DNA of 61,607 bases, filler included, from Hausera hauseri (Eukaryota), in the NCBI GenBank assembly GCA_046269625.1. It is 12 parts of 12 records of this genome, joined end to end, with 100 filler letters (N's around TTAATTAATTAA, not from the genome) between each part and the next. Parts side by side here need not be neighbours in the genome. Positions count along the whole stretch, not along the records: positions 13,408 to 20,915 come from JBJURY010010123.1; 11 more parts are not named here. One strand, written 5' to 3'. The translations under genes were made by a program, and so were the position numbers. Positions 1-46,367 of this stretch are shown piece after piece. Under the pieces are notes generated by a model that was not told where the DNA came from, searched no databases, and worked only from the letters and a program-made list of their open reading frames with translations. Numbering within the stretch: the stretch's first letter is position 1; the number at the start of each line of letters is the position of its first letter.

Positions 1-1748
1 TTGTGGTCAGTCCAGACCAAGAAAGGAAACCTGGAGCCCTCCAACCAATGTCTCCACTCCTCCAGAGCAAGCTTGACGGCCAGCAGCTCCCGATCCCCAA
101 TGTCGTAGTTTCTCTCTGCCTCGGAGAGACCCTTAGAAAAGAAAGCACAGGGGTGAAGGCGTCCCTCCGGGCTGCGCTGGCTAAGAACGGCCCCCACCCC
201 AGTACTGGAGGCGTCCACCTCAACGACAAAGGACTCGTCGGGGTTAGGGGTCCGGAGGATGGGAGCTGAAGAGAACAAAGTTTTAAGGTCGTCAAAAGCT
301 TTGGCTGCTGCGGTGGACCAAACAAAGCGTGACTTAGAAGACGTAAGTTCATGGAGTGGTTTTGCAATTTGACTATAACCCTTAATAAAACGTCTGTAAA
401 AATTGGCAAACCCCAGAAAGCGTTGTAATTGTTTCCGATCCTTGGGGGGAGGCCAGTCCACCACAGCAGCCACCTTGCAGGAATCCATAGAAACAGAGTC
501 TGGGGAAACAACAAAACCTAAAAAAGTGGTGGAGGTGGTGTGAAACTCACACTTCTCAGCTTTTACATATAGTCCATTTTGCAGTAGCCGGGTCAATACA
601 GATCTTACATGTTTTTTATGTGAGTCAATGTCCTTGGAAAAAATCAAAATATCATCTAAATACACGAAAACGAATTTGTTGACCATGTCTCTGAGCACAT
701 CGTTAACTAATGACTGAAAAACAGCTGGTGCGTTGGTGAGCCCGAAAGGTATCACCAAATACTCGTAATGTCCAGTAGGTGTATTGAAAGCGGTCTTCCA
801 CTCGTCCCCCTCTCTGATACGGACCAAATGGTAGGCGTTACGGAGGTCGAGTTTAGTGAAGACCTTGGAACCTTGTAGGAGGTCAAACGCTGTATTCATT
901 AACGGCAGAGGATATCTATTTTTAACTGTGATCTTGTTTAAACCCCTAAAATCAATGCAGGGACGAAGTGACTGGTCCTTCTTTTTAACAAAAAAGAAAC
1001 CGGCCCCTGCTGGAGAAACTGAAGGTCTAATAATCCCTGCTTGCAGGGACTCCTGAATGTAGGTTCTCATGGCCTCTTGCTCTGGTGCAGATAATGAATA
1101 AAGTCCCCCTCTGGGAGGTGTGGTTCCGGGTAAAAGATCAATGGGACAGTCATAAGGGCGATGTGGTGGTAATGACGTGGCCTTAACTTTATTAAATACC
1201 TCCTTGAGGTCATGATATTCAGTGGGCACCTTGGCGAGGTCAGGATAATAGTTCGAGGATCGAGTCACAGAGTCCGTAGGCACCACAGCGTCATAAAGAC
1301 AGGTAGAGAGACACTCCTCAGACCAGCCCAAAATCTCCCTCCGCCTCCAATCTAAGTGAGGGTTATGTTTCGCAAGCCAGGTGGCACCTAAGACCACAGG
1401 AGTCTCCGGAGAGTTTATTATTAAGAATTCAATGACCTCTTTGTGATTGCCACCTAAGCATAATGTGACGGGTTCTGAGACCTGGGAGGAGGAGTTGAGA
1501 GGATGACCGTCGAGCGCGACCACGGAGTGATTCTTAGATGACTGCAGGATCTTAATTCCAGCAGTCACAGCAAAGTCATGATCCAGGAACTCAGTGTCTG
1601 CTCCAGAGTCAATAAAAACTTTAATAGTAGAACGGGTCTTACCAGGAATGCTGATGTCAGCGGAGATGACAAATGGTGAGGAGAATGCGGAAGTAGATGC
1701 ACGACTCAATAAACATCTCCTCTCGTTTATTGAGCCGCCCCTTTTACC
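1..1748 (-). CDS. pol: Ty3/Gypsy (sushi/chromovirus-like) pol: aspartic protease + reverse transcriptase, runs off the window start
   Basis: Manual translation of the -1 frame relative to gag gives [14 protein letters not shown] (protease), then [33 protein letters not shown] and VYLDDIL (RT). No stop seen in the segments I translated; the ORF track probably omits it because it is open-ended. Confidence 0.93.
1678..1748 (-). promoter_or_regulatory. -1 programmed ribosomal frameshift signal (G GUA AAA + H-type pseudoknot)
   Basis: Slippery-like GGTAAAA, then a stem GCGGCTCAATAAAC/GTTTATTGAGTCGT. The loop GAGGAGA is complementary to downstream TCTCCTC. pol lies in the -1 frame. Confidence 0.75.
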
Positions 1749-2276
1749 GGACAAGAGTAAACAGCGTGTCCGGCGTCGCCACAATAGAAACATAGGTGAT
1801 TTCTTCGCCGGTGGTCCCGCTCAGCCGGCGTGAGTTTGCTCCGTCCCAACTGCATAGGTTCCTCCGCTGGATGTGATGTTTGTTGCTGGTGCTCCGCTGC
1901 TGGGCGTGATGACAAAACCGGAGGTGAGTCGAACGTCTTCGTGCGAGTTCCAAACTCACCGCGTTGTCTGAAAGGAGATGACGTCACGGTCCTCCGCTCT
2001 CGTGAACGTTCAGCCAATCGGAGGTCGAGTCTCGTGGCCACGTCCTCCAATTCCTGCAAAGTCTCGGGGAGTCTCTGGGTTGCCAGACCGTCCTTGATGG
2101 CGTCGTTTAAACCTCGATAAAATGCATCAGTTAGTGCTTCGTCATTCCAGTGACTGCCAGACGAAACTGCATGAAAGTCTATGATGTAGTCTGTGACGCG
2201 TCGGTTACCTTGTTTGATGTCAAACAGTCGTCTGGCAGCCTCACGTTCTGGAAGAACCGGGTCAAAAACTCTGCAT
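1727..2276 (-). CDS. gag: Ty3/Gypsy gag C-terminal part (5' end interrupted)
   Basis: [37 protein letters not shown] and a CCHC knuckle [14 protein letters not shown], typical of fish sushi-like gag. Confidence 0.92.
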
Positions 2277-2553
2277 GCAGAGGAGAGGAGGTGCAATGAG
2301 CTGCTGCTGAAGAAACAAAAAAAACTGTGCGTAAGTATTATGATAAAGCTCTTGGTAAGTCTATATTTATTTATTTAAATAAAATTTATATATATATTTA
2401 ATATATATTTAAAAAAAACAAAAAAAAACTTTATGTTTAGGTAATTTAAGAAAGTAGTAAAATTAACAACAGATTTATTTTCAAAACAAGCTGGACGGGG
2501 AAACTTTGGGGAGCCTTGAATCATTTGTTGACGAGTGTTTTGAACGCTTAGTC

Positions 2554-3354
2554 ATGAGCAAAGTTACATCCGGCGCTGCAAACGATTCGGCTAGCACTAG
2601 CACCCCAAATGCTAAGCGTCATCGACAGGGGAGCTCGGATAGCGCTTCTTCACCATCTTCGGATAACTCGGGCTTTACGGCAATTCTGGAGTCAATAGAT
2701 CAGAAGTTATCCAGCTTAGACACCCGTCTGGCTTTAATGGAGGTGCTACATAGCGAGTTTAAAGATCTGAGGGAGTCATTGGAATTTACTCATCAGCTAG
2801 TAGCATCTCTGGCTAGCGAAAACACGGAGCTAAAGGGAACGGTGAAAGAACTTACCGACAAGATGACACTGCTATCCGGTGAGAATAAAAAAATGAAAGA
2901 ATCAATATTAGATATTCAATCTAGGAGCATGCGAGATAATCTTGTTTTCTCTGGAATCCCGGAGCAGGCAGAAGAAGATTCAGAGGCCTCGGTTCGTGCC
3001 TTCATTAAAAACCAGCTAAAGTTGCCGAGTGAGACGGTTAATTCAATCACTTTTCACCGAGTTCATCGGCTAGGAGGTAAAAGAGCCGGGGCCACTAGGC
3101 CGCGGCCGATTGTTGCTAAGTTTGAACATTTCAAGCAAAAGGAGCAGGTTAAGAGTCGAGGTAGAGAGCTGCGTGATACAAATTATAGCATGAATGATCA
3201 ATTCCCTGCAGAAATTCTCAGCAGAAGACGCGTTCTCTTCCCAATTAGAAAGGAAAATATAAAAGACGGCAACAGAGCAACAATTTCGGTGGATAAACTT
3301 TACATCAACGGCCAGCTGTTTCGGGACCCAGAAGCTACTCCGTGGCTTTATTAA
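2554..3354 (+). CDS. LINE-1/Tx1-type ORF1p (coiled coil + RRM + CTD)
   Basis: Heptad coiled coil, then RSMRDNLVFSGIPE, FHRVHRLG, RPRPIVAKF, DQFPAEI..RR and VDKLYING. Start chosen at ATG 2554 (ORF opens at 2506). Confidence 0.9.
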   Translation: MSKVTSGAANDSASTSTPNAKRHRQGSSDSASSPSSDNSGFTAILESIDQKLSSLDTRLALMEVLHSEFKDLRESLEFTHQLVASLASENTELKGTVKELTDKMTLLSGENKKMKESILDIQSRSMRDNLVFSGIPEQAEEDSEASVRAFIKNQLKLPSETVNSITFHRVHRLGGKRAGATRPRPIVAKFEHFKQKEQVKSRGRELRDTNYSMNDQFPAEILSRRRVLFPIRKENIKDGNRATISVDKLYINGQLFRDPEATPWLY

Positions 3355-3813
3355 AATAAGGTAAGAACTGTTTCAGTTGTTAATAATAATTAATATTATT
3401 AAATATAATATTTGTTAATATTACTTACCAGATATATGTACTTTTTCAGCACAGCTCGGTTGGTGGGTTACACAGTGGTGATACACAAGGTGGATGGCAC
3501 TTGATGTGGTGAGAGAGTTCTTTTGTTTTTTGTTTTTGTTTTTCTTCTTATCTCAATTTTTTTTTAGTATCTTCCATTTCTCTCTCTTTTCTTATTTCTA
3601 TTTTTCTAACTCAACATTTATCAGAGCACAAGCACAAGGGGTCACATACATCCTGATATATCCATACAATCACTTTAGACATGAAAACTTACATGACTCA
3701 TTTTCAAATACAGCACTTACTTTATTTATAAATATGTTTTTGTCTGGATCTACTATTATCTCTTATATTGGAGATAATGGGTGTGGTTTGGCTATATTTT
3801 CAATGGTGAAAGT

Positions 3814-3995
3814 ATGGGTTCCTTAAGGTATGTCACATGGAATATTAATGGGGCCGGTAGCCAACATAAAAAATATAGAATTTTTAATAAGATTAATAGA
3901 TTAAAGGCAGATGTTGTATTACTCCAAGAAATTCATAAATTACCCTCAACTGTGGATGAGCTAAAATCTCCTGAGTTTCCTAATGTATTTTCAGC
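3814..3995 (+). CDS. LINE ORF2 N-terminus, APE endonuclease (truncated by contig end)
   Basis: VTWNING and ADVVLLQE motifs. Confidence 0.85.
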
Positions 3996-12170: not shown

Positions 12171-12540
12171 ATCGACTGTTAATGGATTTATCACTAATTA
12201 TTGACTCAAACGGCTGTTACATTAATGCTTAAACCTAATTTAGCATGTAAATATATTTGCTTTTTCTGTTGTTATTTTTCTCAAAACTTTTTGAATTATC
12301 TAAGTAGATTAGTTGCAAGGAAGACTATTCGTTTGAATGTGAATATTACAGATTTGGAATCATACAATAATCTTGATATTCTTATTTTGATAACTCTACG
12401 CCAATCTGAAATACACTGTATTTTATTGTCATATTGACCTTTGACCTATTGTTATACACACTTCATTAATTTGACCAATTGTATTTCGAATTTAACTAAT
12501 CTCATTAGAACTTTTATAATCAACATAACGAATTCATTCC

Positions 12541-13307
12541 ATGTTATCTGCCAGGATCCTTACAACAAAAGAACAATTCGATACTGCTGCGCAGTGGAAA
12601 TTTGGTAATTTTTACCTGACGCGATCTCGCTACTTGAATTCGTTGTTAACAAGTTTTACTTTCCATTTCATCGGGCTAACGTCTGGATTATTGATTTCAG
12701 TATATTTCAATGTTTCTTATCTCATTCCTAATTTTTTATGTTACTGTTTGACATTAACATTTGCTACTATTTTTATTCGACTTAATCGAAAATCGCAAAT
12801 CATCAATCGAACTAACATGAATGAAATTCAGTACCGAACTGATTGGGGGTACATTTTAATCGGAGTTCTTGGGGTTATCTATTTGAATCCTGCATTTTTC
12901 ATTTTGGTCTTAATTTCTAACATCATTCTGGCGGTTTATGTTGTCGGATCTGTTCATTTTGTGTGGTACATCGCCATGAGGGCAGAATTAGACGCAAATT
13001 CCTTCAATGAATTTTGGTATCGTCCTGGGAATTTTATGATTGGATTGTATGTTTCGGGTGAACAGAGAAATAAGCTTATTGGTATTGGTGGGTTGATGCG
13101 TACCAGTGAGCCGAATGTTGGAGAAATCAAACGAATATGGATTGCAGAAAATCAAAGGAGACAAGGATGTGGAATGTATCTTTTAAATGCAATTGTTGAA
13201 GAAGCGAAAAGACGGGGATACAAAACATTAGTTTTGACTTCTAGTACAGGTTTGTATGAAGCGTTTGGTTTGTACATTAAAGCCGGATTTCAAGTAACGA
13301 AGCGTAC
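12541..13307 (+). CDS. Membrane-anchored GNAT N-acetyltransferase (NAT8/camello-like), 3' truncated
   Basis: Several hydrophobic segments, then LIGIGGL..GEIKRIWI..QRRQGCG (acetyl-CoA motif A) and A.GLY.K.GF. Confidence 0.8.
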
Positions 13308-13407: not shown

Positions 13408-13996
13408 AATCATATTTTATCAGTGATATTTCAGATCCTGTATCTATTAGTGCATAAACCTCCCAATCTTCCAATTGAATCTTTGCAAAAGGCCTGCCTT
13501 CGATCACTGTACCGTAATAGCTTGGTGCTATTTTGGGTTGTCGTATGGTAGACACCTTGTAACCGTTAATGGTAACTTCAGTGGTCCCAACTGGCTGCTC
13601 GACCATCTGTCTTAACTTCCCAGTTGGGTATAGTGCATTATTCGTTTCATTCGCGTTTTCCACTCTCTGGTTTCTAACCGTCGGTTGAACATCTGAGGTT
13701 TCGAGATTTCGTGCTTTATGGCGTCGAGTAAGTATCAATTGCATTTTGTTTGATTTAGGTATTCTGGGCGAATAAATTATACTGTGGTCGTCGACTGCTG
13801 ATCTATGGTGTGGAATCGAGGTTTTCTCCATTTCATGGATCTTACGCAGTATCCCATAACGTTTTGTTCCTTTGTAAGGATCCTCTAAACTAAACCGCTT
13901 CCGATAGAGGTCTGTCTGGCACGAACTCATAGACTGTTTCTCACAATCTTCATATATAGGCGCCGTTGGCGGCAATATGAGTAATGGTAGTTTCAT
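13408..13996 (-). CDS. Linker + retropepsin aspartic protease (start of pol), truncated by contig end
   Basis: GRPFAKIQLEDWEVYALIDTGSEISLIK. Confidence 0.85.
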
Positions 13997-14099
13997 AACG
14001 GAGTAATTTTTGTGCCTGTTTGACCTGAAAGGAACATCTCCTCCCTTAGGCTAATCATCATAATTATTTCTTCGTGTCTTGCTATCTAAGAATTTTTGC

Positions 14100-16003
14100 C
14101 TGTAATATATTAGGCGTCTTTTACGTTTCTTATTGTGATAACCAACATGTCGTTCTACATTTGTTTTCCATTTATTCTCTTCGTAAGTCTTTAAGAATTT
14201 GCCGAAAGGAGTAATAATAGCCGTTAGAAATTTTCATAAAAATCCTGTCAAGGTAAATATCTCATATCCATTTATGATTGACTGAATTATAGCTTTTACC
14301 CTTTGAATTAGAAATATATTGCTAGAAATCCTGACGCGGCTTGCCCGAATATTAGGAATCTTCTCCAAATTTTGTATAATATTTTTGTAGTTACTTTTTT
14401 ATAATATCCAACACCAAGTAATGACTCCCATTTTGCCTGGTAACGTGAGTCCTCTAGTATTGTATGCATCGCTCTATTCAATTCATGTGTGCGCTGACGA
14501 GGAAAAGCGAGAAATTGTCTAAACGCCTTTACTTCTTTTGGTCGGTAAATACCCTTCGCGGCCGTATCTTGAAACTTATCATCGGTTATTCCTTTTATTA
14601 GATTTGTACCTGTTAGCTTGGTAGGTAGTGCAATAATACCACCATTGGGTAAACTTACCCAGTCAGTTTCGCTGCATCTAAACATCGGCTCTCCTAAACT
14701 AGTATCTTAAAATGGTTGGTTGAGTGGCGTTCGTCAACAATACTCTGGTAATTGGTGTTGCTAACCTTGGTATGTCTTGATAGATTACCGGAAACTCTTG
14801 TATACACCTCTTCTCTTCCACATTAATCTGTACATCTTTCTTCTCGCACTCATACGTCAATAACACTTCTCCGGTTACTCGTCCAAAAACACTTTCCTTT
14901 ATCGGAATTATTGGTGATGCCAACTCGGGGTTTGCGTATATTAGAGCTAATTTAGTTCTCATGATTTCCAGATCCAATTTACAGTCGTTTTTTATCATTT
15001 TACGGTATAATTCGGCTATTCCGGCTTGTCCCTTATAGTAGAAATAGTCGTCTCTGTTCTTCAAATAGTCTTCAATCCGGATGTCTTGAGTCTCGAGTTT
15101 GAACGTTCTGGCGTTTATTTCTGTCTCGGCTATAAAAAATGCTTCGTAGTTGGTGGCATACATTACGACGTCGCATCTAGAGAGCATGTCTTTCTTTATA
15201 AATTTTAATCCATGAAAATCAGAAATCAGTATTGTAGGTGTGGACTGTTCGGCTACATCCTCTCGCGTTTTAGAGTTAGTTTCTTGGCTACTTATGTACC
15301 GTTTTCCCGTTGTCTCGTTGAATTTTAGTTCTTTAATTCGGATAAAATTACAATCAGTCTTGGCTAAAGGTTCCTAAATTACTACTGAACTACGAAATGG
15401 ACATGTGCCATCCTGAATGTGGCATTTGTAATTCTCGGTGTAATGCTTAGTAACGCTATGGAACATCACTTTCTGCATACGCATTTCGGTTTCGTAAAAA
15501 TCTACTACTACGACGTTCGGCTCCAATCCTTTTTCGGTATCGTATTCCGCACCTTGGCAATGTCTCGTGTGCATGTCTAGCCTTCCGGCCCCTATTTTGT
15601 ACACTCTGACTATTTTTCCTTGCTGTATCTTTAGTTTCATACCATCCCACTTTATTCTTCCCGTCTCTCTTGCTTGCTTACAATGTTGACATTCTAAATT
15701 CATCGGAATTGATGGGGTTCTCGGCTTTATTACTGACGAGTGCCCATGTATCAGTCCACAATGAAAAATGCTGCGAGATCGCCTCAACATACATTCTACT
15801 CCGTCTAATGCAATTAGTTCACGTTGTTGGTATAATACGTAACTCTTTTCTTTTGTTTCTAATTTGTGTGGTCTGTAGTCTTCACACATTTCCAAGTCCA
15901 TTAGTGAGTATTTTTGGCCAAGTCTAAATTTGTCACAATCATATACTGTGACTGCACCCATTTGTTTTATCAACATCATCATGGTCAGAAAGTTTATTAG
16001 CCA
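14100..16003 (-). pseudogene. env: Chuvirus/gB-like (class III) envelope glycoprotein, frameshifted
   Basis: Hydrophobic signal, then AVTVYDC...SLMDLEMC...YQQ...ECMLRRSRSIFHCGLIHGHSS, GEVLLTYEC, CIQEFPVIY, PITRVL, GIY, and a C-terminal TM FLIFGQAASGFLAIYF. This is the Cys/motif pattern of chuvirus-type G proteins. Confidence 0.8.
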
Positions 16004-19000
16004 ATTCGATTCGTTTCCTCTACGATTTCCAGCTATATTTCGTAGCAATTCTTCGAATATATTGTTATCGAAGGGGAATCCACTCTGATTTTCTTCCTCT
16101 TTTTTGAATAACTTAGACCAATTCACTTCTCGGGATAACTTTCTGGCAGCCTTCCTTGCCAAGCTAGTAGCCTTGATGAACTCATTTTCCAGATTTGGAT
16201 TGGTTTTGATGGCCAGGTATAGCAACACCTTTCTCAGTTCCTCTATAGTATTTTCTACCATAATTTTCTCGATTATCATTTCATCACTTAAAGTGCTCTT
16301 AGTTGATTTACAGCGCAGGTTCTTCATAACCTTTGCGGCGTTCGCTATGGTCTTCTCCTTCTCATCTAATATGTCACTGCTGAGGCTAGAGTAGTTTACT
16401 ATTCGTATCAAATCTTTCATCAGTTCGTTCAGTTCTTCATTATCTGCGCCAACGGTCGGTATGAACATCTGCCTCAATTCTCTAATCGAGTCTCCATTAT
16501 AATCGATTTCATTTCGTTTTATCCGTAGCCTACCAACAGGACGTTTCTGTTTTGTTACCACGGTTATATTGCCATCGATTGGTACTAAATTCTTATCATA
16601 CTGCTCGTTATCTTCATCCGTTTGTAAATACTTAAAATACACTGCTGCACCCCGGACTCCCATTATTCGTCCTACCTGTTGTTCTGCTTTAGCCTTTTTT
16701 ATAGCCTCCTCCTTTATCTCGTCGTTAGCGGTGGTTACCACCAACCGATTTACTTCCTCTTGAATAATTCCAACTTCTATTCATGGTTCCGTCTCGTCTA
16801 GTATCCTTCTTCGGAAATAAAGCCTATAGATCAACTCATGGGCATATCCGTTGTTCTTCATCCACAGTAATACATCCTTTACAAGGGAACGCGTAGTGAA
16901 CTCTTGTTCCTTCTCGTCCATCCAATCTGATGCTGTTTTTACTAGAATCGTTTCTTCTGCCTTTGCCTTTAAAATTTTGGTATATACTTTGAGTAAAAGC
17001 TTAGGTACTGTACTAAAAATCGTACCTTCACTAGCCAATTTAGTTAGAGTGGGGACTAGCTGTCTTAATTGAATTTCAGCAAGATTTATTTCTATCAGCT
17101 GAGTTAAATCCTTCTCAGTTTGCGCTGGGTCCAGAAGCATTTCTTTGTTGAACCTTTGTTTAGGAGAATACATTTCCATTTAGCTTAAGTGTATTGGGTT
17201 TTTCAGATTTCCCGCAATCATTGCATCTAAATAGGCTTCCCAATCTGGTTCATTTTCATTATCTGGCAGTTGATAGTTCTTCAACGGTGAATCGGTTGGC
17301 CTACCTACCACTGTGGGCCACGTAGTTGCTCGGAGTACTTGTAATTTCTGTTGCATCTGGACCATTTGGCGGACGTTTGGTGGAGCAGTGTTAAGAATGA
17401 ACATAATTCTTCGGGTGAAATTAGACTCTTTTCTTGGTATTTCGTTAGTTCGGACGTGACATCTATTTGCCATCTTTGACTGAATTGTGACTTGTCAGCT
17501 TTTTAGGCTTCTGTAAGGACGTATTGGTTTTTGTAAACTTCGAGTTCTCTAGCTAGTTCGTCCAACCTTATTGCTCTCTGTTTCGTCTTAATGCAAGTTT
17601 CTTCGACTTGCTGTATCTGCTGCAACAATTGTCTTAGTTTCTCATCACTAATTTCTGCCATTTCGGCCATCAATAGCGCTAGTTCGGACATCTCATTAAT
17701 GTTCTTTGAATTCGGATCTATCGCATCTATTAGTTTTTTTACGAACTTAATATCTTCGAAGTTAAGGTGGCGGTCGTTCATTATTTTAGTTAATTCGGCA
17801 TGAAGTCTTTGGTCTGTTCCATCTCTCCACTCTTGTGGACGATGTAAGAACTTAACTGCTTCTTTAACAACTGATCGGTATTCGGGACAAAAGTCCAAGG
17901 TTTTAAAATCTTGTGACGAGATTTCTTCGATGGGTTTGGCTGTCAACCAGCGTATTCCTTTCAAGCAGATATCTCTTAGTCGTGGGTAGAAATCGCAAGT
18001 CACGTTTCGCTTTCGCGTGAAATTAGTTTCTTCAATCATTTTATATATACCGTTTAGCACCATCATCTCTCCTTTCTTTTCCATGAAGTTTAATTGACGT
18101 AGTGCTTCGAATTGGGTTCGGATGTCAATCTCTGCTTTCATCGTATCTAGGTTTTGGGCGTCTTCTTCCAGCTGCTTCTTAACTGTAGGTTCACTTTCTG
18201 AAAATTCCTTTTTTCGATCGGCCACTAATTCACTCAGCCTCGTTATTACTCCTGACTATTCTTTCAACTGGTTAGCGATTTCTGGCTTTGCCAGTATCGC
18301 TTTATTTAACATTTTGCGGGCGTCATTTAGCTCGTCATCTGGACCTCTAATAAAATCGATGATCCGGTAGGCACAGTCAAACTCATCTTTATATTCATCT
18401 AATTCGAAGAGACAAGTATGAATTATTTTCTGTGTTTTTATATCAGCTGGGTGCATGATCCTATTCCTTAGACTATATATCTGCGACCGCTTTTCGACTT
18501 CTATTTTAAGACGGTTTTCCAAACTAGTATATTGCCTTGTCGCAGTAGAAGCGATTTTTATCATTTCCGTTAATGGCGGAATATCCAATACGTCTATGCC
18601 TAACATCTCTAAGTCGTTTGCATCTCGTTCTTTGTCCGGCTTCTTTCTTAGTTGTTCGACTATGATGAATCTAAATTCGTCCATGACACGCTCCAAATTA
18701 CATGCTGCTCTTTTTCATTTCGGGTTGGCTTCTAATGTAGCTAATAACGACTGAGCCTGGTTGACCCTAGTTTCAATGTTTTGGGTAGTTTTATCCCATG
18801 TCTCCGGAAGTTTTGTCTTACTTCTGATCCACCGTTCTAACTCACGTTTCAACTAAACTAGGGTTTCTTTTGCCACTTCTTCTGGTTGATCCAAATCTAT
18901 AGCTTCACTTAGTTTCCCTTTGCTACATAGTTTCATATTTTTATATAATCTTTCTGCAAACTGCTGTTCTTTACCATAAATATCCACTTGTTCGCTCACT

Positions 19001-19548
19001 GCTTTAAGCTTCTCTAGATTTTGTCGTAATACTTCTGGGTTACGATAGTTTATCCTTATTCTTTTTAACTCTTCTGCATTTTTCTACGAGCGCCTAATTT
19101 TCCACTTTTTAGGATCAAGTTTGTCTTCTCGTTTTGTTTTCTCTTCGCTCGTAAGTAAGGGACATACATTATTTATTTTATCTATAGATTTCATCAGCTC
19201 ACCCATTTTGCTAGTCGTAACTAAATTAATTTTCAAAATGTGCGAGGCACACTCCGTTTCACTGTATAATGCGAATTCTGAATCTCACTTGGTCCTTGAT
19301 TTCTCTTTAATCATTGGGGATCTAGAACGATCCTTCCGTTTCCGTCACAATGATGGGCTACAGCCTCTATTCTTGGTGATTTTAAGAATAAGCGGTTCGA
19401 GAAATTCTTCTTTTTCGTCAGGCTCTGCCTCCTTGGTTACCTTTTCTATAGTATGCTCAGGTTCCGAATCTGCCTTATCCGGAGTCTGAGGCCTCCCTGA
19501 GTCGATTGGTTCTTTGTTTATCGTAGAAGCGTTCTTTTTCCGAGCCAT
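16004..19548 (-). pseudogene. Long unknown helical leader (~1200 aa, fragmented) with a ubiquitin-like domain
   Basis: Consecutive ORF fragments 19548, 18696, 18225, 17473, 17179 and 16744. The last runs without a stop into the glycoprotein. The part from ~18200 downward is conserved in copy 2. Confidence 0.65.
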
Positions 19549-19694
19549 ATTAGTTAGTCTTGGTGGGGCAGTGGAATGTTCCTATTCCGTTTCTGGTTTA
19601 CGCAGGCCATGGTAAACTTGCATTAGGCGTAATTTATGCTCATATTCATTTCTAGCCACTAAGTCTTTTGGGTCATTAGTTTGAGGCTGTGCTT

Positions 19695-20864
19695 TTAAAA
19701 AAGCCGTAAATTCTGTATCTCAATAATCATTCCTGTGTCTTTACAAACACCGTAAATTACTTCTAAATTTTCGTTTTTAATTACATTGGTTTTATTAGGC
19801 TCCACAAACGAGACACTTCGCGGATTCGGATAGGACCTCGCTATGTGTCCTTCTTGTCCACATGTGAAACAGATCAAATTGCCATTTCTTCCAACCCTTT
19901 GTCTACCATCCTCGTTTAACGGAGATTTCGATCTACTCGGATTTATATTGTAACCTTGCTGCGGTGGAGTCTGTCTAGGGTCTCCATATTGACAATTATC
20001 GTAACTCCGGTTGTCATTTTGTCGACTAAAGTTTTTGGAGCCATCTAGGCGTTTATCTGTCTGGTAATTTGGTTTATTAGACAAACTATTTCGACTATTA
20101 TCAAACTTCTGATTGCTGTATCGATCGTTTCGGTGATCATAATTACCGTTTCTGTTCCTATCTCCATAATTCTTGTTAAGTCGTCTATCGGTTCTATTGT
20201 GGCGATTTCTATCGCTCCGATCGCCTTGATCATTATTTCTATCATTATTTCTAGTATATCTGGCCAACGCCATTTCTATATCTTGAGCTAATTGCAATGT
20301 CATATCAAAATTCTCTGGACGTGCTAGAATCAATTGCTTCACTATGTCTTTAGACCAAATCCCATTTATTAATTTCGTCATTATCATGACGTCTAAATTA
20401 GGAGGGCTTGCCTTTTTTGCGGCCTCACGTTCTGCTTAGATTTTAGCCTTTGCTATGTTTGCTATCCTTCAGGTACTTACATAGCTGTTTGTCAACTTCT
20501 TTAATGCAGAAGCGAATTGGGTTATCGATTCACCCTTTTGTTGTACTTGATTCTGGAAAGCCATGAGCTTTTGTTGCGGAGTTACAGTCGGCAATAATTT
20601 TCGATTCAAGGCTCCTACCAGGGAGGACCAAGTTTTATTTTCATCATCCGTGAGTTCACTATAGGCATCAGCGGCCAGATTCTTTAGATACAGGGACAGA
20701 CGTTTGATAATTACGTTAGCTGCTAATCCATCACCTTCTGCATGTAACTTATATGTTCTTAAAAATTCATTAAGTCCATCCGGGTTTCCAACGTACGCCG
20801 GCAGATTAAGAGAGTTAAATGTGAAAATGTCCAACTTTTGCGCTACTGCCTGATTTTCAACCAT
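19695..20864 (-). pseudogene. gag: Gag (capsid + NC) with premature stops
   Basis: LSLYLKNLAADAY..W..L, QQKGESITQFASALKKL (major-homology-like), an R/N-rich NC region and a degenerate knuckle CFTCGQEGHIARSY. Confidence 0.85.
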
Positions 20865-21015
20865 ATTTTTAAAGTTTAATAGATTTTGCTTTACTATCCT
20901 ACGAGCTCTAATTTTNNNNNNNNNNNNNNNNNNNNNNNNNNNNNNNNNNNNNNNNNNNNTTAATTAATTAANNNNNNNNNNNNNNNNNNNNNNNNNNNNN
21001 NNNNNNNNNNNNNNN

Positions 21016-22180
21016 ATACAGCAAAAGAAATGTGTCGGCTATCTTTTTGTAGGTTGTTGCCTTTGCTAGAACTTGCCGTGTGTCCTAGCGGCTAAATCAG
21101 TATTTTTGTAGCTGGTGAGTTTGGCCTACTATGTTGTGTGAGTTTAGTGGTGTTGATTTTATTGTGCGTGTTGTAGTTACAGCAAGGTAGGCATTTTTGT
21201 GTTTTTGTTTCAAATTTTGAGTGATAGATGCAAACGATGTTGCTTGCATTAAAATTGGGGAGTAAAATTTACAACCAATGCAGCATTTCTGCGCATTGTT
21301 ACCAAATTTGTTGTGATAGTAGCAAATAGACGACTGCGCGGGCGAAGACAACCGTCTTCGTCGTTGATGAAATATATTAGGGGAAGCAGCCCTAGAAAAA
21401 CCTCGTCGAGGTGGCATTAACTCATTTAATTTCTCGTTTATGTTATTAATTTTCTTTTGTAACATATCATTGTCTGTGCGTAATTGCGCAATTTGTTGCT
21501 ACAGCATTGCATTTTGTTGTTGGTGGTTTGTTATTAATGCCGCAGAAACAGTTGGTGTTGTGTATGAGTGCAGCACTTCATAGGCTTTGTCCGCCAGTTC
21601 GGCCAACTTTTCCAGTGCCGTGGAGTCTTCGACCACAGTTAGCAAAGCTCTTATTTGAAGGGGCAATACGTTTAGGAAGTAACGACGAAGAAGTTCTGGA
21701 CTATGCTCAGATGTTATGCCAAGGGTTTTGAGGTGAGACAAAGATGTGCGCAAGAATTCAGAAGGCTTCTGAAGGTCCATGGCGTTGTCGTTGAAGAATC
21801 TTTGCATGATAAAGTCAATTGACGGCTCAGTGAGCTTAAGAACGGCATTATAAAGTTGAGAATATGGATCGGTGTGGTGAAGGATGTCCATGATGTTTGT
21901 AATTTTAGTTTTGATGGAAGCAGGTAAATGAAAAAACAGGCTGTTGGCTTTGGATAAGGGGTCGATGACGTTTTGTGATTGGAGCCAGAATTGGAGAATT
22001 TTTAGCCATGTTTGGGTAGAATTTTGGCTGTCATATAAGTATTCTGTGAAGGTTGAATGAACAAGGAGTGTGTGCTGTGTCAGAGTGTTTGAAGTACTTT
22101 GTTTGGGTAAGTATGTGATAGAAATCGGTGGTTTGGTGGGTTTGTCCGTGGTATCAATAGTGTGTAGTGAATCCATGCCA
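21016..22180 (-). pseudogene. gag: CsRn1-like Ty3/Gypsy gag (same family as 51235-52236)
   Basis: DPYSQLYNAVL, KPSEFLR, FLNVLPLQIRALL, LAELADK and a CYYHNKFGNNAQKC..GC (CHCC) motif. Directly alignable with the 51235 ORF. Confidence 0.85.
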
Positions 22181-23102
22181 CCACGGATGAAGAAGTTTAT
22201 GTGAAGGTGAATATAGATGGAAGAGGGTTGCAGATTCCCAAAGAGATGTAACGTGGCGCCGTAATGTGTGAGGTAAAAGTCTGGTGTGCGAAAAAGAGTG
22301 GAGATGAAGTTATAAATTGCCGTCGTGTTTAAATGCGTTACAGCATTTGTGCAAATGTGTTTGTTATTTAAGAAAAAATAGGAAATGAGAAGAGGTCGTG
22401 TAGCCGGGGCATGTCGCGGAGCGACAACGAAGGGTGCCGTCCGACCCAATGGTATAGGGTGGGCGGCCGCGGTTTTAGCTTCGCCGCGGCGGGTCGCAAA
22501 CTAAGGGGTAACCGATATCTTACCAGTCTTGGTGTAGAATGTATCCAAACCTACAACCATAGTCGGACTAAGCTTTAAATCAATGTCCCACGGGTCATAA
22601 TCAATTTTAGCAAACATATGCACTACGGTTTTATTAGCAACAAATATCAAAGTAATATTCATTTTATTCACCTGGATTTGTTTGATGATGGTGCTAGCCA
22701 CAATGGCTTTGTTGTCCTTTCTTCGTTTCTGTTCATTTTCGACGAGTGGTAATTCTTCAGGTCGTGCCATTCAAGAAGTCATAGTTCGGTGGAACCTGCT
22801 TAGAGCTGGAGCGTTCAGATCTTTTAAATTATCCTCGATTGCTTCTTGGAATAGCCGGATTTATTCGGCTTTTGCTCGCTCTGTGCTAGGATCGCCTAAA
22901 ATCGGCGAACGAGTCTATCGGATACTCCTGGCGACACAATCAATGGAAATATGCGGTATAAAAATTTTGTTGAAACCCGTTTTATTTGTAATTGCGCAAT
23001 AGTGCATGTCTGCGAACGCCATACTCTAACTGTACTCACCGACTATTTCATTGTTAACGAGATCTCGATTGTGCTTCAATAACAAAGAGGCTAAGAATTT
23101 CT

Positions 23103-35506: not shown

Positions 35507-36016
35507 ATGTCTCACTTGACTACACAACTCATTAGCTTATACCACTCATTCGACGGATTCCGGAACCACCTGTACAATCTCGATCGACCTTTGGACAATG
35601 CTCGATATTTGCCTCCGGGAGAGCTACTTCTACTTGCTGAGCAGAATTGGAAAGCACGAGAACCCTACTTACGTCATATGAAGCAGGTTGTTTGTGATAT
35701 GGAATTTTTATTCCGTAAGATTTTTTGCATATATGGAAAAATGACGACGTTGGACGATAATCCTCGTCAAGTACGTCAGTTTATGACCGATTTTGTCAAA
35801 CGTGGTAGTAGTGGTAGTCAGACGAATTACATTCCTACGTGTCAGTCAGCAGATGAAATTTTCTTGAAGCAATATTGCAATATGATTAATTCCGATAGTC
35901 TAGATCATTCTTCTTCTTCGAATTGGTTAATCTCTGTGGTTTGTGTAATCCGAATTGACTCGAACAATTTAGTAGCAGTAGCATTACTTGTACAAAAAAA
36001 TAAAAGTTTGATGTAA
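35507..36016 (+). CDS. Hypothetical Polinton-associated protein
   Basis: 169-aa ATG ORF preceded by TATAAA at ~35464, divergent from polB; no family recognised. Confidence 0.35.
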   Translation: MSHLTTQLISLYHSFDGFRNHLYNLDRPLDNARYLPPGELLLLAEQNWKAREPYLRHMKQVVCDMEFLFRKIFCIYGKMTTLDDNPRQVRQFMTDFVKRGSSGSQTNYIPTCQSADEIFLKQYCNMINSDSLDHSSSSNWLISVVCVIRIDSNNLVAVALLVQKNKSLM

Positions 36017-36072
36017 AGTTCGTTTTTTCGTTACTCAAAACGATCATTATAGTGAGGTAGGTGGGAAATGGT

Positions 36073-36720
36073 GTTGTCCGAAAACTAGGTTATTACAAAA
36101 ATTTTTCCGACTGAACTCATCTTGCTGAGTCTAAATATGCAGGTGTCCAGAACTAGGTCAGTCTACAAATTTTTCAGACTCAACCCACCTTGCTGAGTTA
36201 AAATATGCAGGTGTCCAGAACTAGGTCAGTCTAAAAATTTTTTCGACTCACCTCATCTTACTGAGTTCAAATATTTAGGTGTCCAAGACTGGGTCAGTCT
36301 AAAAATTTTCCCGACTCAACTCACCTTGCAGAGTTCAAATATGCAGGTGTCCAGAACTAGGTCAGTTTAAAAATTTTTTCCACTCACCTCACCTTACTGA
36401 GTTCAAATATTCAGGTGTCCAAAACTGGGTCAGTCCAAAAATCTGTCCGACTCAACTCACCTTTCTTCGTTTAAATATGTAGGTGTCTAGAACTGGGTCA
36501 GTCTAAAAATATTTTCGACTCACTTCACCTTTCTGCGTTCAAATATGCAAGTGTCCAAAACTGGGTCGGTCCAAAAATTTTCCCGGCCAAACTCAACTTG
36601 CTAAGTTCAAATATGTAGATGGCCAAAACTGGGTCAGTCTAAAAAATTTTTTTGACTCAACCCATCTTACCGAGTTCAAATATGCAGGTGTCCAACCTGG
36701 GTCAGTCAAAAAAATTTCCC
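36073..36720 (+). repeat. 68-bp tandem minisatellite, about 9.5 copies
   Basis: The unit GGTGTCCAGAACTAGGTCAGTCTAAAAATTTTTTCGACTCAACTCACCTTGCTGAGTTCAAATATGCA recurs at 36142, 36210, 36278, 36346, 36414, 36482, 36550, 36618 and 36687. Confidence 0.95.
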
Positions 36721-36903
36721 AACCCCACTCAGTCAACCCAACACAATGCCACAATAACAAAAGAAATTAAATAAATAAATAAATAAAATAAAATAAAACA
36801 ATANNNNNNNNNNNNNNNNNNNNNNNNNNNNNNNNNNNNNNNNNNNNTTAATTAATTAANNNNNNNNNNNNNNNNNNNNNNNNNNNNNNNNNNNNNNNNN
36901 NNN

Positions 36904-39900
36904 CATAAACAAGGGCCTTCCTTTCGTTTACGATTATAGTAACCGATATAGCGTTCTACGTCCGATTTCCATCTATTTATTTTGTATGCTTTTAAGAATT
37001 TTCCAAAAGTCGTTATGATTGCAGTCAGTATTTTACATGAAAATCCTGCCAATGTAAATATTTCATACAGATTATTATTACTGCTTGGATGACTGCCTTA
37101 ATCATTTGTATCAGAAAATATATTGCTAAAAATCCGGATGCGGCTTGACGAAAAATCAAAAATCTTCCCCAAATTTTGTAGAGTATTTCTGTGGTTACTC
37201 GTTGATAATGATTTACGCGCAGCAGGGATTCCCATTTAGACTGATACCGAGTACAGTCTACTACGGAGGCCATGGCTCGGTTTAATTCGTGTGTCCACTG
37301 TCGCAGAAAAGCGAGGAATTGTCTGAAGGCTTCGATTTCTTTAGGTCTATATATGCCTTTTGACGAGGTGCCTTGAAATTTATCGTCTGTAATTTCTTTT
37401 GCAAGATTTGTTTTTGTTAATTTATTTGGGGCGGCGGTAATGCCTCCATTTGGCAAACTAACCCAATCCGTTTCACGACATCTGAACATAGGTTCTCCTA
37501 AACTTGCTTTACAATCCTTAAGGATTGTCGGTTCAGTTGCGTTGTCTAATAGCATTCTAGTGAGTGGCATAGCTAACCTTGGAATATTCTGGTAAATAAC
37601 GGGAAGTTCCTGCATGCAGCGTTTTTCTTCAACGTTGATTGGTACATCTCCTTTCTCACATTCGTAGGTCAGCAGTACTTTACCGGCAACTCGACCGAAA
37701 ATTCCTTCTCTCATAGAAATTATTGGGGATGCCAACTCGGGATTAGCGTAAATAAGAGCTAGTTTTGTCCTCATAATTTCCATATCCAATTTGCAATCAT
37801 TTGTTATAATTTTGTAATATAACTCGGTTATTCCAACCTGCCCTTTGTAATAGAAATAATCGTCTGTATTTTTTCAGGTAATCCTCGATTCGGATATCTT
37901 GCGTTTCTAACTTGTAAGTCTTCGCACTTATTTCTGTCTCGGCGACGAAAAACGCCTCGTAGTTAGTAGCGAACATCACTATTTCACAACGAGAAATCAT
38001 TTCTTTCTTAATAATTTTTAGCCCATGCTGATCAGAGATTAATATAGTGGGCGTAGGATGTTCTGCTACATCTTCGCTTGTCCTTGAGTTGGTATAAGAT
38101 TTATCCGCATATCGCTTTCCAGTAGTTTTAATAAACTTTAATTCCTTAATTCTGATAAAATTACAGCTTCTTCCATAGGGAGGTTCCCATATTATAACCG
38201 AACTTCTGAAAGTACAGGTGCCGTCCTGTAAATGACATTTTTGATTCTGGGTTTATAGTTTAATGACACTATGGAACATTACTTTCTGTGCTCGAATCTC
38301 TCATTCATAGAAATCCACGACCACTACGTTTGCTTGTAATCCTTTTTCGGTGTCGTATTCCGCCCCGATACAATGTCCGTTATGCATACCTAACCTTCCG
38401 ACCACTACCTTATATGCCTGATTATCTTTCCTAGTTTCATTTTTAATTCCATACTGTCCTATTGTACCCTTCCGGTCTCCTTAGCCTGTTTGCAGTTCTG
38501 GCGTTCTAAATTTATTGGAATTGGAGGAGTTGTTGGTTTGATTATTGAAGAATGTCCATGTACTAATCCACAGTAAGAAACGCTACGAGATCGCCTCAGA
38601 AAACATTCCATTCCATCTAAGGTTATCAATTCTTGCTGTTGATACAGAAGATAATTTTTCTGTATTGTTTCTAACTTGTGCGGCCTGGAATCTTCGCACA
38701 CTTCCAAATCAATTAGGGAATATCTCTGACCTAGTTTAAACTTTTCGCAGTCGTAGACAGTAATAGCGTTTATGCGCTTTATTTGCATCATCAAGGGGAG
38801 TAAGTTGATTAGCCAATTTGATTCGTTTTCCTTGTTATTATTATCGGTTGTTACCAAATTACGTAACATATCCTCGAATCTATTACTATTACCCAACCGT
38901 TTTTCTTCTTCCTTGTCGAATAGTATTAACCAATTTACTTCGCAGGGCAGCTTTCTCGCCGCTCTTCGTGCTAAGCTTGTAGCTCTATTAATTTCATTTT
39001 CTCGATTAAGATTTACTTTGATAGCTAAGTATAATAATACCTTTCTTAATTCTTCGGTGGTGTTTTTTACCATGATCTTTTCGACTACCGATTCGTCGGT
39101 TAAGTTAGTTTTCAATATTTTGAAACGTAAACTTTTCATCATTCTAGCTGCATTGAATATTGTTTTTTCTTTATCATCTAATGTGTCATCACGAAGGCTT
39201 GAATAATTTACAATACGTATTAAATTCTTCATTAATTTGTTTAATTATTCATTGTCTGTGCTGAAAGTAGGAATCGACATTTGTCTCAATTCTCTAATCA
39301 ATTCTCCATTATAGTCAACTTCTCGTGTCTTCTTAGGCCTTTCGACCGGACGTTTTTGTCTTGGGACATTGGCATTCACTCAGCGGCACTAATTTCTTAC
39401 CGTATTGTTCCTTGTCCTCATCCGTTTGTAAATACTTGAAATATATTGCAGCATCTCGCACTCCTATGATTTGTCCTACGCATTGTTCTGTCTTGGCCTT
39501 ACGCGTGGCTCCTTCTTTTGTCTGTTCATTGGCTATTATTACTACTATTCGATTTGTTTCGTCGGGGATAATCCCTACATCTATTAATTGTTCTAAATCG
39601 TCGAGTATCCTACCTCTAAAGTAAAACCTATATTTTAGCTCATTTCTTCCGCCATTATTTAATAACCATTCTCTTACGTCCCTTACATAGGAATGTGTAG
39701 TTAACTCACATTTTTTTTCGTCTATCCACTCGGATGATACCATGACTTTCATCGTTACCTCAGGTTTGGTCCTCAACATTTTAGCCTATTTCCTTATCAG
39801 AAGTTTCGGCATCGTACTATAAATTGTATTTTCACTAGATAATTTAGTTAAGGTCGGAATAAGTTGTCTTAACTTACCTTCAGTAATATTTACGTTAATT

Positions 39901-40984
39901 AGTTCAATTAAATCTTTTTCAGTTATCGCTGAATCTAGGAGCATCTGCACATTGAATCTCTTGTTCTGGGCACGCGTTTTTATTTCATTTAGTTGTACTG
40001 GAGTCGCAGGATTTTCGGCCGTTATCGCATCTAAGTACGCATCCCATTCTGGTTCATTTCCAACATCTGGAAGTCCATAGTCTACTAAGGCTGTATTCGT
40101 TCACTGCACATTTTTTCGAATTTCCTTCAATCTTGGTTGTATTTCTTTCATCTGCGTAGTTCAGAAACTTATTCCGTTTTCGCATGCATACTAAATCATT
40201 TTCAGTAATTCGCCTAATTCATTATAATTGATGAATCCCTTTTGGTGATAATCAGTTAGTTCGATAATTACATTTCTTTGCCATATCTGTACAAATTCTC
40301 GCTTATTTTTGATTTCTGATTCGGTAAAAGCATATTTGTTCCGGTAGGTTCCGAGCTCTTTTACTAATTCATCTAACCTCGTTGCTCTTTGTTTAGTTTT
40401 AATGCACGTTTCTTCTACCTGTCTTATTTTAGGTATCAATTGCCTCATCTTCTCATCATTAATTTCCGCCATTTCTACTAATAGAAGGCTAACGCATACG
40501 TCTCATTTATGACTTTTGAGTCGGGATCTATCGCATCAAGCAATTTCTTTACGAACTTAGATTCTACGAGGCTAAGATGTTGGTTGTCTCTTATTTTTGT
40601 CAATTCCGTATGGCAATTCTGATCTGTTCCGGCCATCCACTCTTGTGGTTTATGCAAGAATTTCATTGTTTCCACTAGGGTTTCGATATCCTGGATTGAA
40701 ATCTCGTTGATAGGTCTATCTGTTAAATGTTGGACCCCTTATAGTCGGATGTTTCTTAATCTTAGATAAAAATTGCAAGTCATATTTCGATTTTTTGTAA
40801 AGTTTGTCTGTTCGATCATTTTATAAGTCTCTTCCAATATTATTACATCTTGTTTCTTCTTCATAAATTTTAGCTGTCGTAGTGCTTCGAATGGAGTTCG
40901 GATATCTATTTTCGCTTTTATCGTATCTAAATTACGTGCACTTTCTTCTAATTGCCTTTTTATAGATGGTTCCTTTCTGGAAAT
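36904..40984 (-). mobile_element. Env-bearing retroelement, diverged copy 2 (leader, UBL, glycoprotein, TM, tail)
   Basis: Collinear peptide matches to 14100-18200, e.g. IRIVNYSSL, EELRKVLLYLAIK, TVYDC, CGLVHGHSS, TKLALIYANPELASPII and AASGFLAIYF. Confidence 0.9.
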
Positions 40985-45200: not shown

Positions 45201-45369
45201 ACAACACCATTACTACTACGGTATGCGAGCAGTAAAGAGCGTTCTTACTGCTGCTGGAAATCTTCGTCAGAAGTATCCGGAAACCGACAACGAAGCAGTA
45301 TTACTTCTAAAAGCCATTAACGACGTTAATTTACCAAAATTTTTATCACAAGACATTCTGCTATTTGAA
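42208..45369 (+). CDS. Axonemal inner-arm dynein heavy chain fragment (DNAH3/7/12-like linker + AAA1), two exons (to 42854; from 44266)
   Basis: [64 protein letters not shown], Walker A GPSGTGKT and Walker B CFDEFNR. Phase-0 GT-AG intron 42855-44265 joins WPGQ to IVICVS. Confidence 0.93.
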
Positions 45370-46367
45370 GAAATCGATTACCCATATGACCGATTTAACT
45401 TGGCTTTTAAAACGGACTACAACATAACATCGGGGTGTGTGTTAAACTTCGATGATCATATTCAGTTTGTTGTGTCTTCCAATGACGGAAGACTCGGCCT
45501 GCTTTTCAGTGAAATGGAATATGTCATTCATAATGAAGCTTTGAAGGATTTAGAATATTCAGTGCATCCAATATTTGGTTACTTAACATTATCACCAGCG
45601 TATATTGGTACAGCATTTAGCATTAGAATTTTGGGTAAGTTTCCTTTTATTAGTCGATTGGTGGATGTTAATAGTTTAATTAAAGATACCGATGTGATTG
45701 TGACGAAGGAAGTTAAAAATGATAACACCGGATTGATATTCATTACTAATAGAGAGACACTGAATAAAACCGGGATCGAAATATTTCAGGATATTTTAAA
45801 AGCTTATAACAGGTTATCTATAATCGAAGACGAATTTGAGATAACAACGCCGCTATCAGTTCAAGAAGACAATATGGGTGTGGAGAAACTTGCAAGGATA
45901 TACGATAAAATTGTTGAAACACTGTCAAAATCATATATGAAAAAGTATTTGACTCCAACTGTGATGAACCAATACCGATATGTTAGATCATATTTTGGAG
46001 CGACTTTGATGCACTGTATTAGACACAATGCCAGTCATCCGGAATCCTTGTTTCCAAGAGCATGTGATGCTGATTGCTACACAAAATTTCCCAATTTCTT
46101 TAATCCAATTTTAATGGAGTTAAACTGTATAAAGCATATTAATCATCACAAGGCGCCGTTCTATGGTAATATTTCTGGTGACAAACGGTACCAACTTCGT
46201 CATCCGGATATCGTTAGTTATCGGGTTCGATTTTCAAGGAATTTTGAAAAATATCCTTTTCCAAATAGGATGTCAGTTGAAGGAGAGAATGAGGGTGTTC
46301 CAATGAAACCCGAAGATTTGAAATATTTTCATGAATTGTTTGAAGAGAAAGATGCGAGTCTTTTAAC
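45370..46367 (+). CDS. Tandem phosphagen (arginine/taurocyamine) kinase-like domains, in frame with the dynein fragment
   Basis: NFDDH (cf. NEEDH) and [13 protein letters not shown] (cf. GFLTFCPTNLGT), then a second domain [39 protein letters not shown]. Confidence 0.8.

Follow-up and report, generated by a model that had tools for sequence, protein, structure and literature searches.

A decayed, probably Burro-like Ty3/gypsy retrotransposon with an envelope glycoprotein between gag and pol in Hausera hauseri

Layout and decay of the element

We analysed 61,607 nucleotides of Hausera hauseri DNA (assembly GCA_046269625.1; hereafter the window), in which N-TTAATTAATTAA-N linkers connect a series of short contigs, and focus here on one whole contig of ∼7.5 kb bounded by such linkers (positions 13408–20915), which probably holds a decayed copy of an enveloped long terminal repeat (LTR) retrotransposon. 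Its minus strand carries, in this order, a gag gene, a 3.7-kb stretch termed the leader (19713–16004), a hydrophobic signal segment, a class III fusion glycoprotein (Env), a membrane anchor, a tail and the start of a protease. The contig begins ∼50 bases ahead of gag, while its opposite end cuts the protease; from the gag start to the protease motif there are ∼2470 codons. This order on one strand of one contig had been proposed in an earlier reading of the DNA without database searches (the sequence-only reading), and it was borne out by Pfam matches, reading frames and a protease profile. The features of this copy (copy 1), together with a second copy on another contig (copy 2), are listed below; database relatives carry P numbers.

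19695..20864, minus strand: gag, decayed (Pfam Retrotrans_gag and zf-CCHC; tblastn to relatives); stops at 20471 and 20438, ending at a TAA
19830..19871, minus strand: single zinc knuckle (Pfam zf-CCHC), its last ligand lost in copy 1
17401..19713, minus strand: leader part A, decayed coding sequence, likely helical or coiled-coil (stop count; third-position bias against copy 2)
16004..17314, minus strand: leader part B, sharing its frame with the signal segment and the glycoprotein's first part; stops at 17182 and 16783
16718..16963, minus strand: possible ubiquitin/SUMO-like domain, weak (sub-threshold Pfam in copy 2 and P0011; VIA)
16118..16453, minus strand: putative Bcl-2-like helical domain, moderate (model residues 177–288; VIA; Pfam in relatives)
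15953..16003, minus strand: internal hydrophobic signal segment, presumably cleaved (Kyte-Doolittle 19-mer 1.49; aligns with the hydrophobic segments of relatives)
14711..15952, minus strand: class III fusion glycoprotein, first part (PF24664, E 9e-35); stop at 15376, frame break near 14710
14311..14706, minus strand: last part of the glycoprotein and start of the anchor, in a second frame (PF24664, E 3e-9); frame break near 14311
∼14273..14358, minus strand: transmembrane anchor, which the frame break interrupts in copy 1 (hydropathy of copy 2 and relatives)
13454..14272, minus strand: tail, predicted to be cytoplasmic and continuing in the protease frame; a further hydrophobic segment at 14260–14204, stops at 14236 and 14053
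13958..13969, minus strand: PTAP motif, late-domain-like (motif scan of the tail)
13613..13633, minus strand: LYPx3L motif, late-domain-like, ∼60 residues ahead of the protease motif (motif scan of the tail)
13409..13516, minus strand: aspartic protease start, cut by the contig end (ALIDTGSEISL at 13453–13421; profile E 3.2e-5)
36904..40984, minus strand: copy 2, diverged and separately decayed, from leader to tail start (comparison with copy 1)

The glycoprotein scores 120 bits in its first part on PF24664 (Monjiviricetes_fusion), for which the curated cut-off is 27, and the anchor reaches hydropathies of 1.45 in copy 2, 2.25 in P0001 and 1.99 in P0002. A model of the first 416 residues only, with a predicted local distance difference test score (pLDDT) of 93.5, shows a fold like that of herpesvirus glycoprotein B (gB) with a long central helix, here of 48 residues. 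All 39 matches that Foldseek listed from the PDB were herpesvirus gB (best E 2.5e-12; TM-scores only 0.27–0.51), while the best matches in BFVD were glycoproteins of invertebrate negative-strand RNA viruses, several of them chu-like (E 8e-27 to 1e-25, TMq up to 0.74); a sequence search of the PDB with Env gave no match. By profile and predicted fold, Env is a class III (chuvirus/gB-type) fusogen, akin to the chuvirus glycoprotein (G) and to gB, as the sequence-only reading had proposed. The single frameshift that had been placed at ∼14311 proved to be one of two breaks, near 14710 and near 14311, with the stop at 15376 in addition.

On either side of Env, gag and the protease start give the pairing expected of a Ty3/gypsy element. 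In gag, zf-CCHC matches at E 1.8e-4 and Retrotrans_gag at E 1.3e-3, the latter below the curated cut-off, and tblastn finds the gag regions of P0011 (E 1e-15) and P0007 (E 4e-7). The CCHC gag proposed at 20864–19695 stands in presence and position, though decayed, with two internal stops and a degenerate knuckle. From 14314 to the contig end the protease frame has 2 stops in 302 codons (TGA at 14236–14234 and TAG at 14053–14051), where the other two frames have 22 and 24, a count that agrees with the original description of a tail in the protease frame broken only by one TGA and one TAG. Against a profile built from 11 relatives, the protease start reaches 20.2 bits, whereas none of 2000 shuffles exceeds 6.1; this truncated piece has no Pfam match alone.

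The leader proves to be a decayed coding region that evolved under purifying selection. Part A has 8 stops in 771 codons, compared to 72 and 73 in the other two frames, with 34% E/K/Q/R; between 18215 and 17400, 131 of its 253 differences from copy 2 fall at third positions, and a frame break lies between ∼17400 and ∼17320. What had been described as a long leader is thus a long stretch between gag and the glycoprotein, but not a mere leader. Part A has no Pfam match (none for MATH, AIR1 or Smc), a word-indexed search found no homolog of the leader, and a protein atlas search with its last 258 residues found none. When the last part of the leader was folded with a 10-row alignment, the mean pLDDT was 45.8, with values mostly of 68–83 over residues 181–280. 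In VIA comparisons of the Bcl-2-like model, the top 16 of the 50 matches listed were Bcl-2 family members (Z 6.1–7.5, root-mean-square deviation (rmsd) 3.5–5.2, 94–109 residues aligned), and Pfam Bcl-2 matches at the same position in three of the four relatives' stretches tested (E 2.4e-5, 0.007 and 0.009). These results give moderate support to a predicted Bcl-2-like domain ahead of Env. Upstream of it, a ubiquitin/SUMO-like domain is weakly suggested by Pfam ubiquitin in the copy-2 equivalent (E 0.095) and P0011 (E 0.046), the copy 1 piece having no match, and by VIA matches to SUMO/ubiquitin-like chains (Z 4.0–4.3, rmsd 2.5–2.9) on a low-pLDDT part of the model. A leader profile run against PDB sequences reached Bcl-xL and ubiquitin-like chains at E 0.5–2.6 only.

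Copy 2, already noticed in the sequence-only reading, is real: it spans 36904–40984 and is 65–69% identical to copy 1. It is open in one frame over both Env breaks (37873–37028), and the five copy 1 stops that it covers are all sense codons there; we conclude from this that the breaks are copy-specific decay. In all eight segments compared (18215 to 14100), the proportion of nonsynonymous differences is 0.13–0.28 and that of synonymous differences runs from 0.65 to saturated, a signal that is lost in shifted frames; purifying selection holds across all eight. The comparison of the two copies suggests that leader, Env and tail start were once a single frame. Altogether copy 1 carries 15 stops in frame along with several frame breaks, most likely all post-insertion decay, the TAG in the tail included. 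The intact open reading frames (ORFs) and multiple near-identical copies that mark the elements of PMC13524379 (see below) are therefore not seen here, which is a feature of the copy and not of the family. Contig pieces of sequencing run X1 (14,708 of them) match across all 30 bins of the stretch, only 585 at ≥99%; the pattern would fit many diverged copies, although X1 may itself be the source, and depth does not equal copy number; the matches listed do not reach the TAG.

Relatives and the join between Env and protease

Searching 1.84 billion representatives with Env gave 397 matches at E ≤ 0.001, and relatives were drawn from the best 150, the nearest being ∼30% identical to Env. In a FastTree of 128 rows (proteins with <380 aligned residues were dropped, keeping 127 of 152), the copy 1 Env falls in a 21-row clade with a local support of 99. 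Among the 20 database proteins of this clade, Env is followed in one ORF by a protease (PR) in 12, by a reverse transcriptase (RT) in 6 and by an integrase (IN) in 5; Pfam gag or CCHC precedes Env in 4; and P0016 has CCHC, Env, protease, RT, RNase H (RH) and integrase in one ORF. Five clade relatives show the order PR-RT-RH-IN with gypsy-type Pfam families, and a protease or RT motif is absent from all 107 proteins that fall outside the clade. A word-indexed search for homologs of Env among longer proteins found none, nor did scans of metagenome contigs and viral contigs for related loci. Since 12 of the 20 clade proteins are open from Env into the protease, Env–Pol fusion is the rule in the clade and a readthrough is unneeded. 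Two proposals of the sequence-only reading are supported by these results, namely an LTR-type retroelement that encodes an envelope, here a class III fusogen, between its gag and pol genes (by domain order, fold and clade) and an Env–Pol polyprotein (by the single-ORF relatives).

The same reading had offered, as an alternative, that Env ends at the TAG and that Pol is made by programmed readthrough. The TAG does lie in the protease frame, such a stop would solve the stoichiometry of Env and Pol, copy 2 stops short of the TAG, and one relative, P0025, ends after a short tail. However, in those 12 clade relatives no stop separates Env from the protease; the TAG is upstream of PTAP and of a conserved Tyr-Pro (YP) motif whose usual place in stand-alone G tails is close to the end; and copy 1 has 14 other in-frame stops, of which the five testable ones are all copy-specific. 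Readthrough was therefore set aside as quite improbable.

At ∼19700 the frame changes between gag and leader, the leader frame lying at −1 relative to gag and overlapping the final gag codons at a run of T. Programmed −1 frameshifting is a common strategy of LTR elements, and gag could accordingly be a separate ORF, with leader, Env and Pol reached by a shift near 19700 and Gag made in excess. Both the frame relation and the overlap would suit such a shift. Yet the T-run heptamer is out of the gag frame, the sole in-frame heptamer (at 19770) leads into stops in the −1 frame, and no downstream stimulatory structure appears (z +1.12); no programmed shift signal was thus found at the gag end, neither a usable slippery site nor a downstream structure. 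Gag is moreover in frame with Env in four relatives by Pfam, and Burro, introduced below, is one ORF (PMC6431247). We regard the frameshift as unlikely, though worth keeping in view.

The sequence-only reading had also pointed to BEL/Pao elements, which proved to be the wrong family: the relatives carry a Ty3/gypsy-type Pfam set, no BEL/Pao-type Pfam families occur in the clade relatives scanned, and the only match with a BEL/Pao-type marker (DUF5641), P0068, is distant (E 5e-11, compared to 3e-65 for the best clade match) and falls outside the clade. The mosquito Anakin elements (Dezordi et al., bioRxiv 10.1101/2020.02.15.950899) resemble ours in that an LTR element has captured a glycoprotein of the same chuvirus family, but they belong to BEL/Pao. 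Chuvirus G is common in BEL/Pao elements according to the same preprint, and none of the mapped X1 contigs spans the whole stretch; the order could on these grounds be accidental, from a chuvirus-type endogenous viral element or an Anakin-type piece lying inside a gypsy element to which it does not belong, or from misassembly. But leader, Env and tail recur in copy 2 on another contig under purifying selection, the nearest relatives keep the order in single ORFs, and P0068 with its BEL/Pao-type marker stands apart from the clade. An accidental order is in our view extremely improbable.

The giant Ty3/gypsy elements of planarians, Burro/GYPSM1, were described in 2019 with Gag, Ubi/SUMO-like and BCL2-like domains and an env in frame before pol (Arkhipova & Yushenova, PMC6431247). 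In the description given there, Burro is a single ORF of ∼5000 aa, >30 kb with its LTRs, from a dugesiid host; its env is related to mononegavirus fusion glycoproteins; decayed fragments with stops and frameshifts are known; and a Burro element of D. tigrina has no MATH in ORF1. The element described here shares with that account a CCHC Gag, a long accessory region, a BCL2-like domain (with moderate support), an Env in frame between the BCL2-like domain and the protease (the two Env breaks being absent from copy 2), and occurrence as decayed fragments. The weakly suggested Ubi/SUMO-like domain ahead of the BCL2-like one would agree with Burro's order. The element differs from that account in having one degenerate knuckle where Burro has two or three, and in a Gag that is out of frame with the leader in copy 1. 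The leader is charged in composition and has no Pfam match to MATH, AIR1 or Smc; the regions corresponding to Burro's full size, LTRs, dUTPase, BIR and ankyrin parts lie beyond the contig. We are fairly confident that the contig is a decayed copy of a Burro-like Ty3/gypsy LTR retrotransposon, intact members of which would encode a single polyprotein, Gag-leader-Env-protease-RT-RNase H-integrase. The Burro-like Ty3/gypsy assignment itself is likely, with placement in the family drawn from relatives since RT, integrase and LTRs lie off the contig.

Several other observations concern the relatives. Two to six tandem protease-like domains follow Env in P0001, P0003, P0005, P0006, P0015, P0017 and P0151, and in P0151, a protein of 4844 aa, there are further matches to ankyrin and C2H2 zinc fingers and a protease-like motif after the integrase. 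P0002, an Env-PR-RT-RH-IN polyprotein, was deposited as part of a Flavobacteriaceae metagenome-assembled genome and is probably eukaryotic contamination of the bin. The RT of another contig in the window (1–3995) was rejected as the pol of the element, as it is only 42–48% identical to the relatives' RTs, which are 49–82% alike among themselves (one near-identical pair excepted), and has its own protease.

Tail motifs and a proposed assembly route

PTAP and LYPxnL-type sequences are retroviral late-domain motifs that bind TSG101 and ALIX (PMC12789967), and the PTAP and LYPx3L of copy 1 both lie downstream of the TAG. A hydrophobic residue followed by Tyr-Pro (hydrophobic-YP) occurs 20–110 residues ahead of the protease motif in 10 of 13 clade tails, compared to 0.76 expected from shuffles. 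In a set of 12 tails, with boundaries reset by hand and P0006 left out as a near-duplicate, YPxL is found in 5 (0.51 expected) and P[TS]AP in 2 (0.04 expected). Stand-alone G tails outside the clade served as a control: among 85, hydrophobic-YP occurs in 36 (6.6 expected), P[TS]AP in 7 (1.0 expected) and PPxY in 10 (2.9 expected), and the 25 hydrophobic-YP cases listed sit 5–39 residues from the C-terminus. Enrichment of these three motifs near the C-termini of stand-alone chuvirus-type glycoprotein tails is an observation in its own right. As the YP motif is enriched in stand-alone G tails too, it would have arrived with the captured glycoprotein and likely marks its former end, and the TAG therefore falls within the tail.

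Retroviral proteases cut aromatic-Pro bonds, and in relatives the Tyr-Pro lies 28–90 residues ahead of the protease motif, so that it could be the cleavage site at the protease N-terminus instead of a budding signal. Against this, YP is also enriched where a G tail stands alone and no protease follows (36 of 85), the spacing is variable, and a downstream L or I is common (8 of 12). The enrichment in stand-alone tails speaks more for a role in trafficking or budding than for cleavage by the protease, and we consider the cut-site reading unlikely.

The tail motifs suggest Env-driven budding through the endosomal sorting complex required for transport (ESCRT). The polyprotein would be made on the endoplasmic reticulum, with Gag and leader cytosolic; the internal hydrophobic segment would act as a signal, cut by signal peptidase; the glycoprotein would enter the lumen; and the anchor would stop transfer, leaving tail and Pol cytosolic on a trimeric spike. 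PTAP and LYPxnL in the tail would recruit TSG101 and ALIX for budding, the protease, concentrated at the membrane, would free itself, RT and integrase, and the Bcl-2-like and ubiquitin-like domains may modulate host cell death or protein turnover. We put forward, tentatively and as a possibility that we would not yet favour, a more general form of this proposal: chuvirus-type glycoproteins generally, and Gag-Env-Pol elements with them, may carry their budding signals (YPxnL, P[T/S]AP) in the Env tail and not in Gag, with Pol fused behind the original end of the glycoprotein; the spike would then recruit ESCRT and bring the enzymes into the particle, the Bcl-2-like domain keeping the producer cell alive. 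The section on Burro in PMC6431247 makes no mention of late-domain tail motifs, and we found no paper on such motifs in Env tails among literature screened by titles and abstract openings, with subscription papers (e.g. Sacco 2022, Grohme 2018) outside its reach.

A number of points tell against the Burro-like polyprotein and the assembly route built upon it. RT, RNase H, integrase, LTRs and the primer site lie outside the contig, and with size and pol beyond it and a single knuckle, the element is termed Burro-like and not Burro. Copy 2 ends ∼50 bases short of the TAG position and covers neither the TAG nor the gag/leader junction; eight of the 20 clade proteins end within Env or right after the anchor, and P0025, outside the tree, ends after its short tail without a protease. 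In the leader, the Bcl-2-like stretch of copy 1 has no Pfam Bcl-2 match of its own, Foldseek with the leader model returned nothing at E ≤ 0.001, the VIA Z values stay below 8 for a helical domain whose fold alignment included Bcl-2-like relatives, and the evidence for the ubiquitin-like domain is sub-threshold. In the tails, the YP pattern was picked after inspection of the data, and the relatives cannot count as independent samples, with P0006 and P0151 falling in one cluster. What is said of topology, processing and budding is a proposal read from sequence features.

Other features of the window and published elements

Other contigs of the window hold dynein and further gypsy-type pol pieces. 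The host is likely an animal: a dynein piece nearby shares 80% identity with a protein of a liver fluke, whereas 10 other named proteins reach ≤70% over that stretch. This hints only weakly at a flatworm, as paralogues vary and the contigs could be a mixture. At 44266–46365 (plus strand), a 700-codon frame runs from a dynein heavy chain AAA_6 domain (residues 108–370) into phosphagen-kinase-like domains in reversed order (Pfam ATP-gua_Ptrans at 360–521, E 2e-9; N-terminal domain at 554–615, E 4e-14); possible explanations are a chimeric contig, one gene nested in another and a true fusion, and an atlas search returned only dynein clusters. Gypsy-type sequences comprise PR-RT-RH on the first contig (1–1820, minus strand), an element at 51131–56087 (plus strand) with RT-RH-IN pieces at 53030–55210, and a stretch at 21097–22500 (minus strand) that is gag-like at 21103–22187 and has an 85–88% inverted copy at 51224–52231. 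An Endonuclease VII-like match with a weak DNA_pol_B_2 match at 57840–58574 (plus strand) suggests a Polinton/Maverick-like fragment. The window also has an intronless frame at 12529–13307 (plus strand) with hydrophobic segments and then, by eye, an acetyltransferase-like motif; a tandem array of 68-base period at 36015–36762; and an 845-codon acidic low-complexity open frame at 47310–49845 (minus strand) that has no Pfam match.

As to published elements with env before pol, Sacco et al. are said to have described in 2022 a continuous gag-env-pro-pol ORF in nematode elements, and we know of no long ubiquitin-like/Bcl-2-like leader in nematode endogenous retroviruses. The capture of an RNA virus glycoprotein by a metavirus in these nematode viruses, with env before pol, is credited to that 2022 work by Chary & Hayashi (eLife 2026, PMC13524379), who themselves describe GAG-ENV-POL Ty3/gypsy “ancient errantiviruses” with gB-type env in Nematoda, Bryozoa and Platyhelminthes. 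Their supplementary file 1 includes at least nine flatworm rows, the flatworm loci being ∼12–18 kb with flanks. Our element has the same order and a class III Env, thus a gB-type env between gag and pol; the difference is that the text of PMC13524379 treats GAG, ENV and POL as ORFs, without discussing a fused polyprotein. The gag-env-pol layout was already in print, for Burro in 2019 (PMC6431247) and for three phyla (PMC13524379).

The element is a new example of a published architecture and not a new kind, here decayed and truncated, and a broken, incomplete copy adds little as a discovery. Its value lies in a Burro-type cassette (a possible ubiquitin-like and a Bcl-2-like domain with an in-frame class III Env) in a divergent family, and in conserved late-domain-like motifs of the Env tail that offer a testable lead on budding. 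If true, budding through the Env tail would set the assembly of these elements apart from that of retroviruses and of insect errantiviruses.

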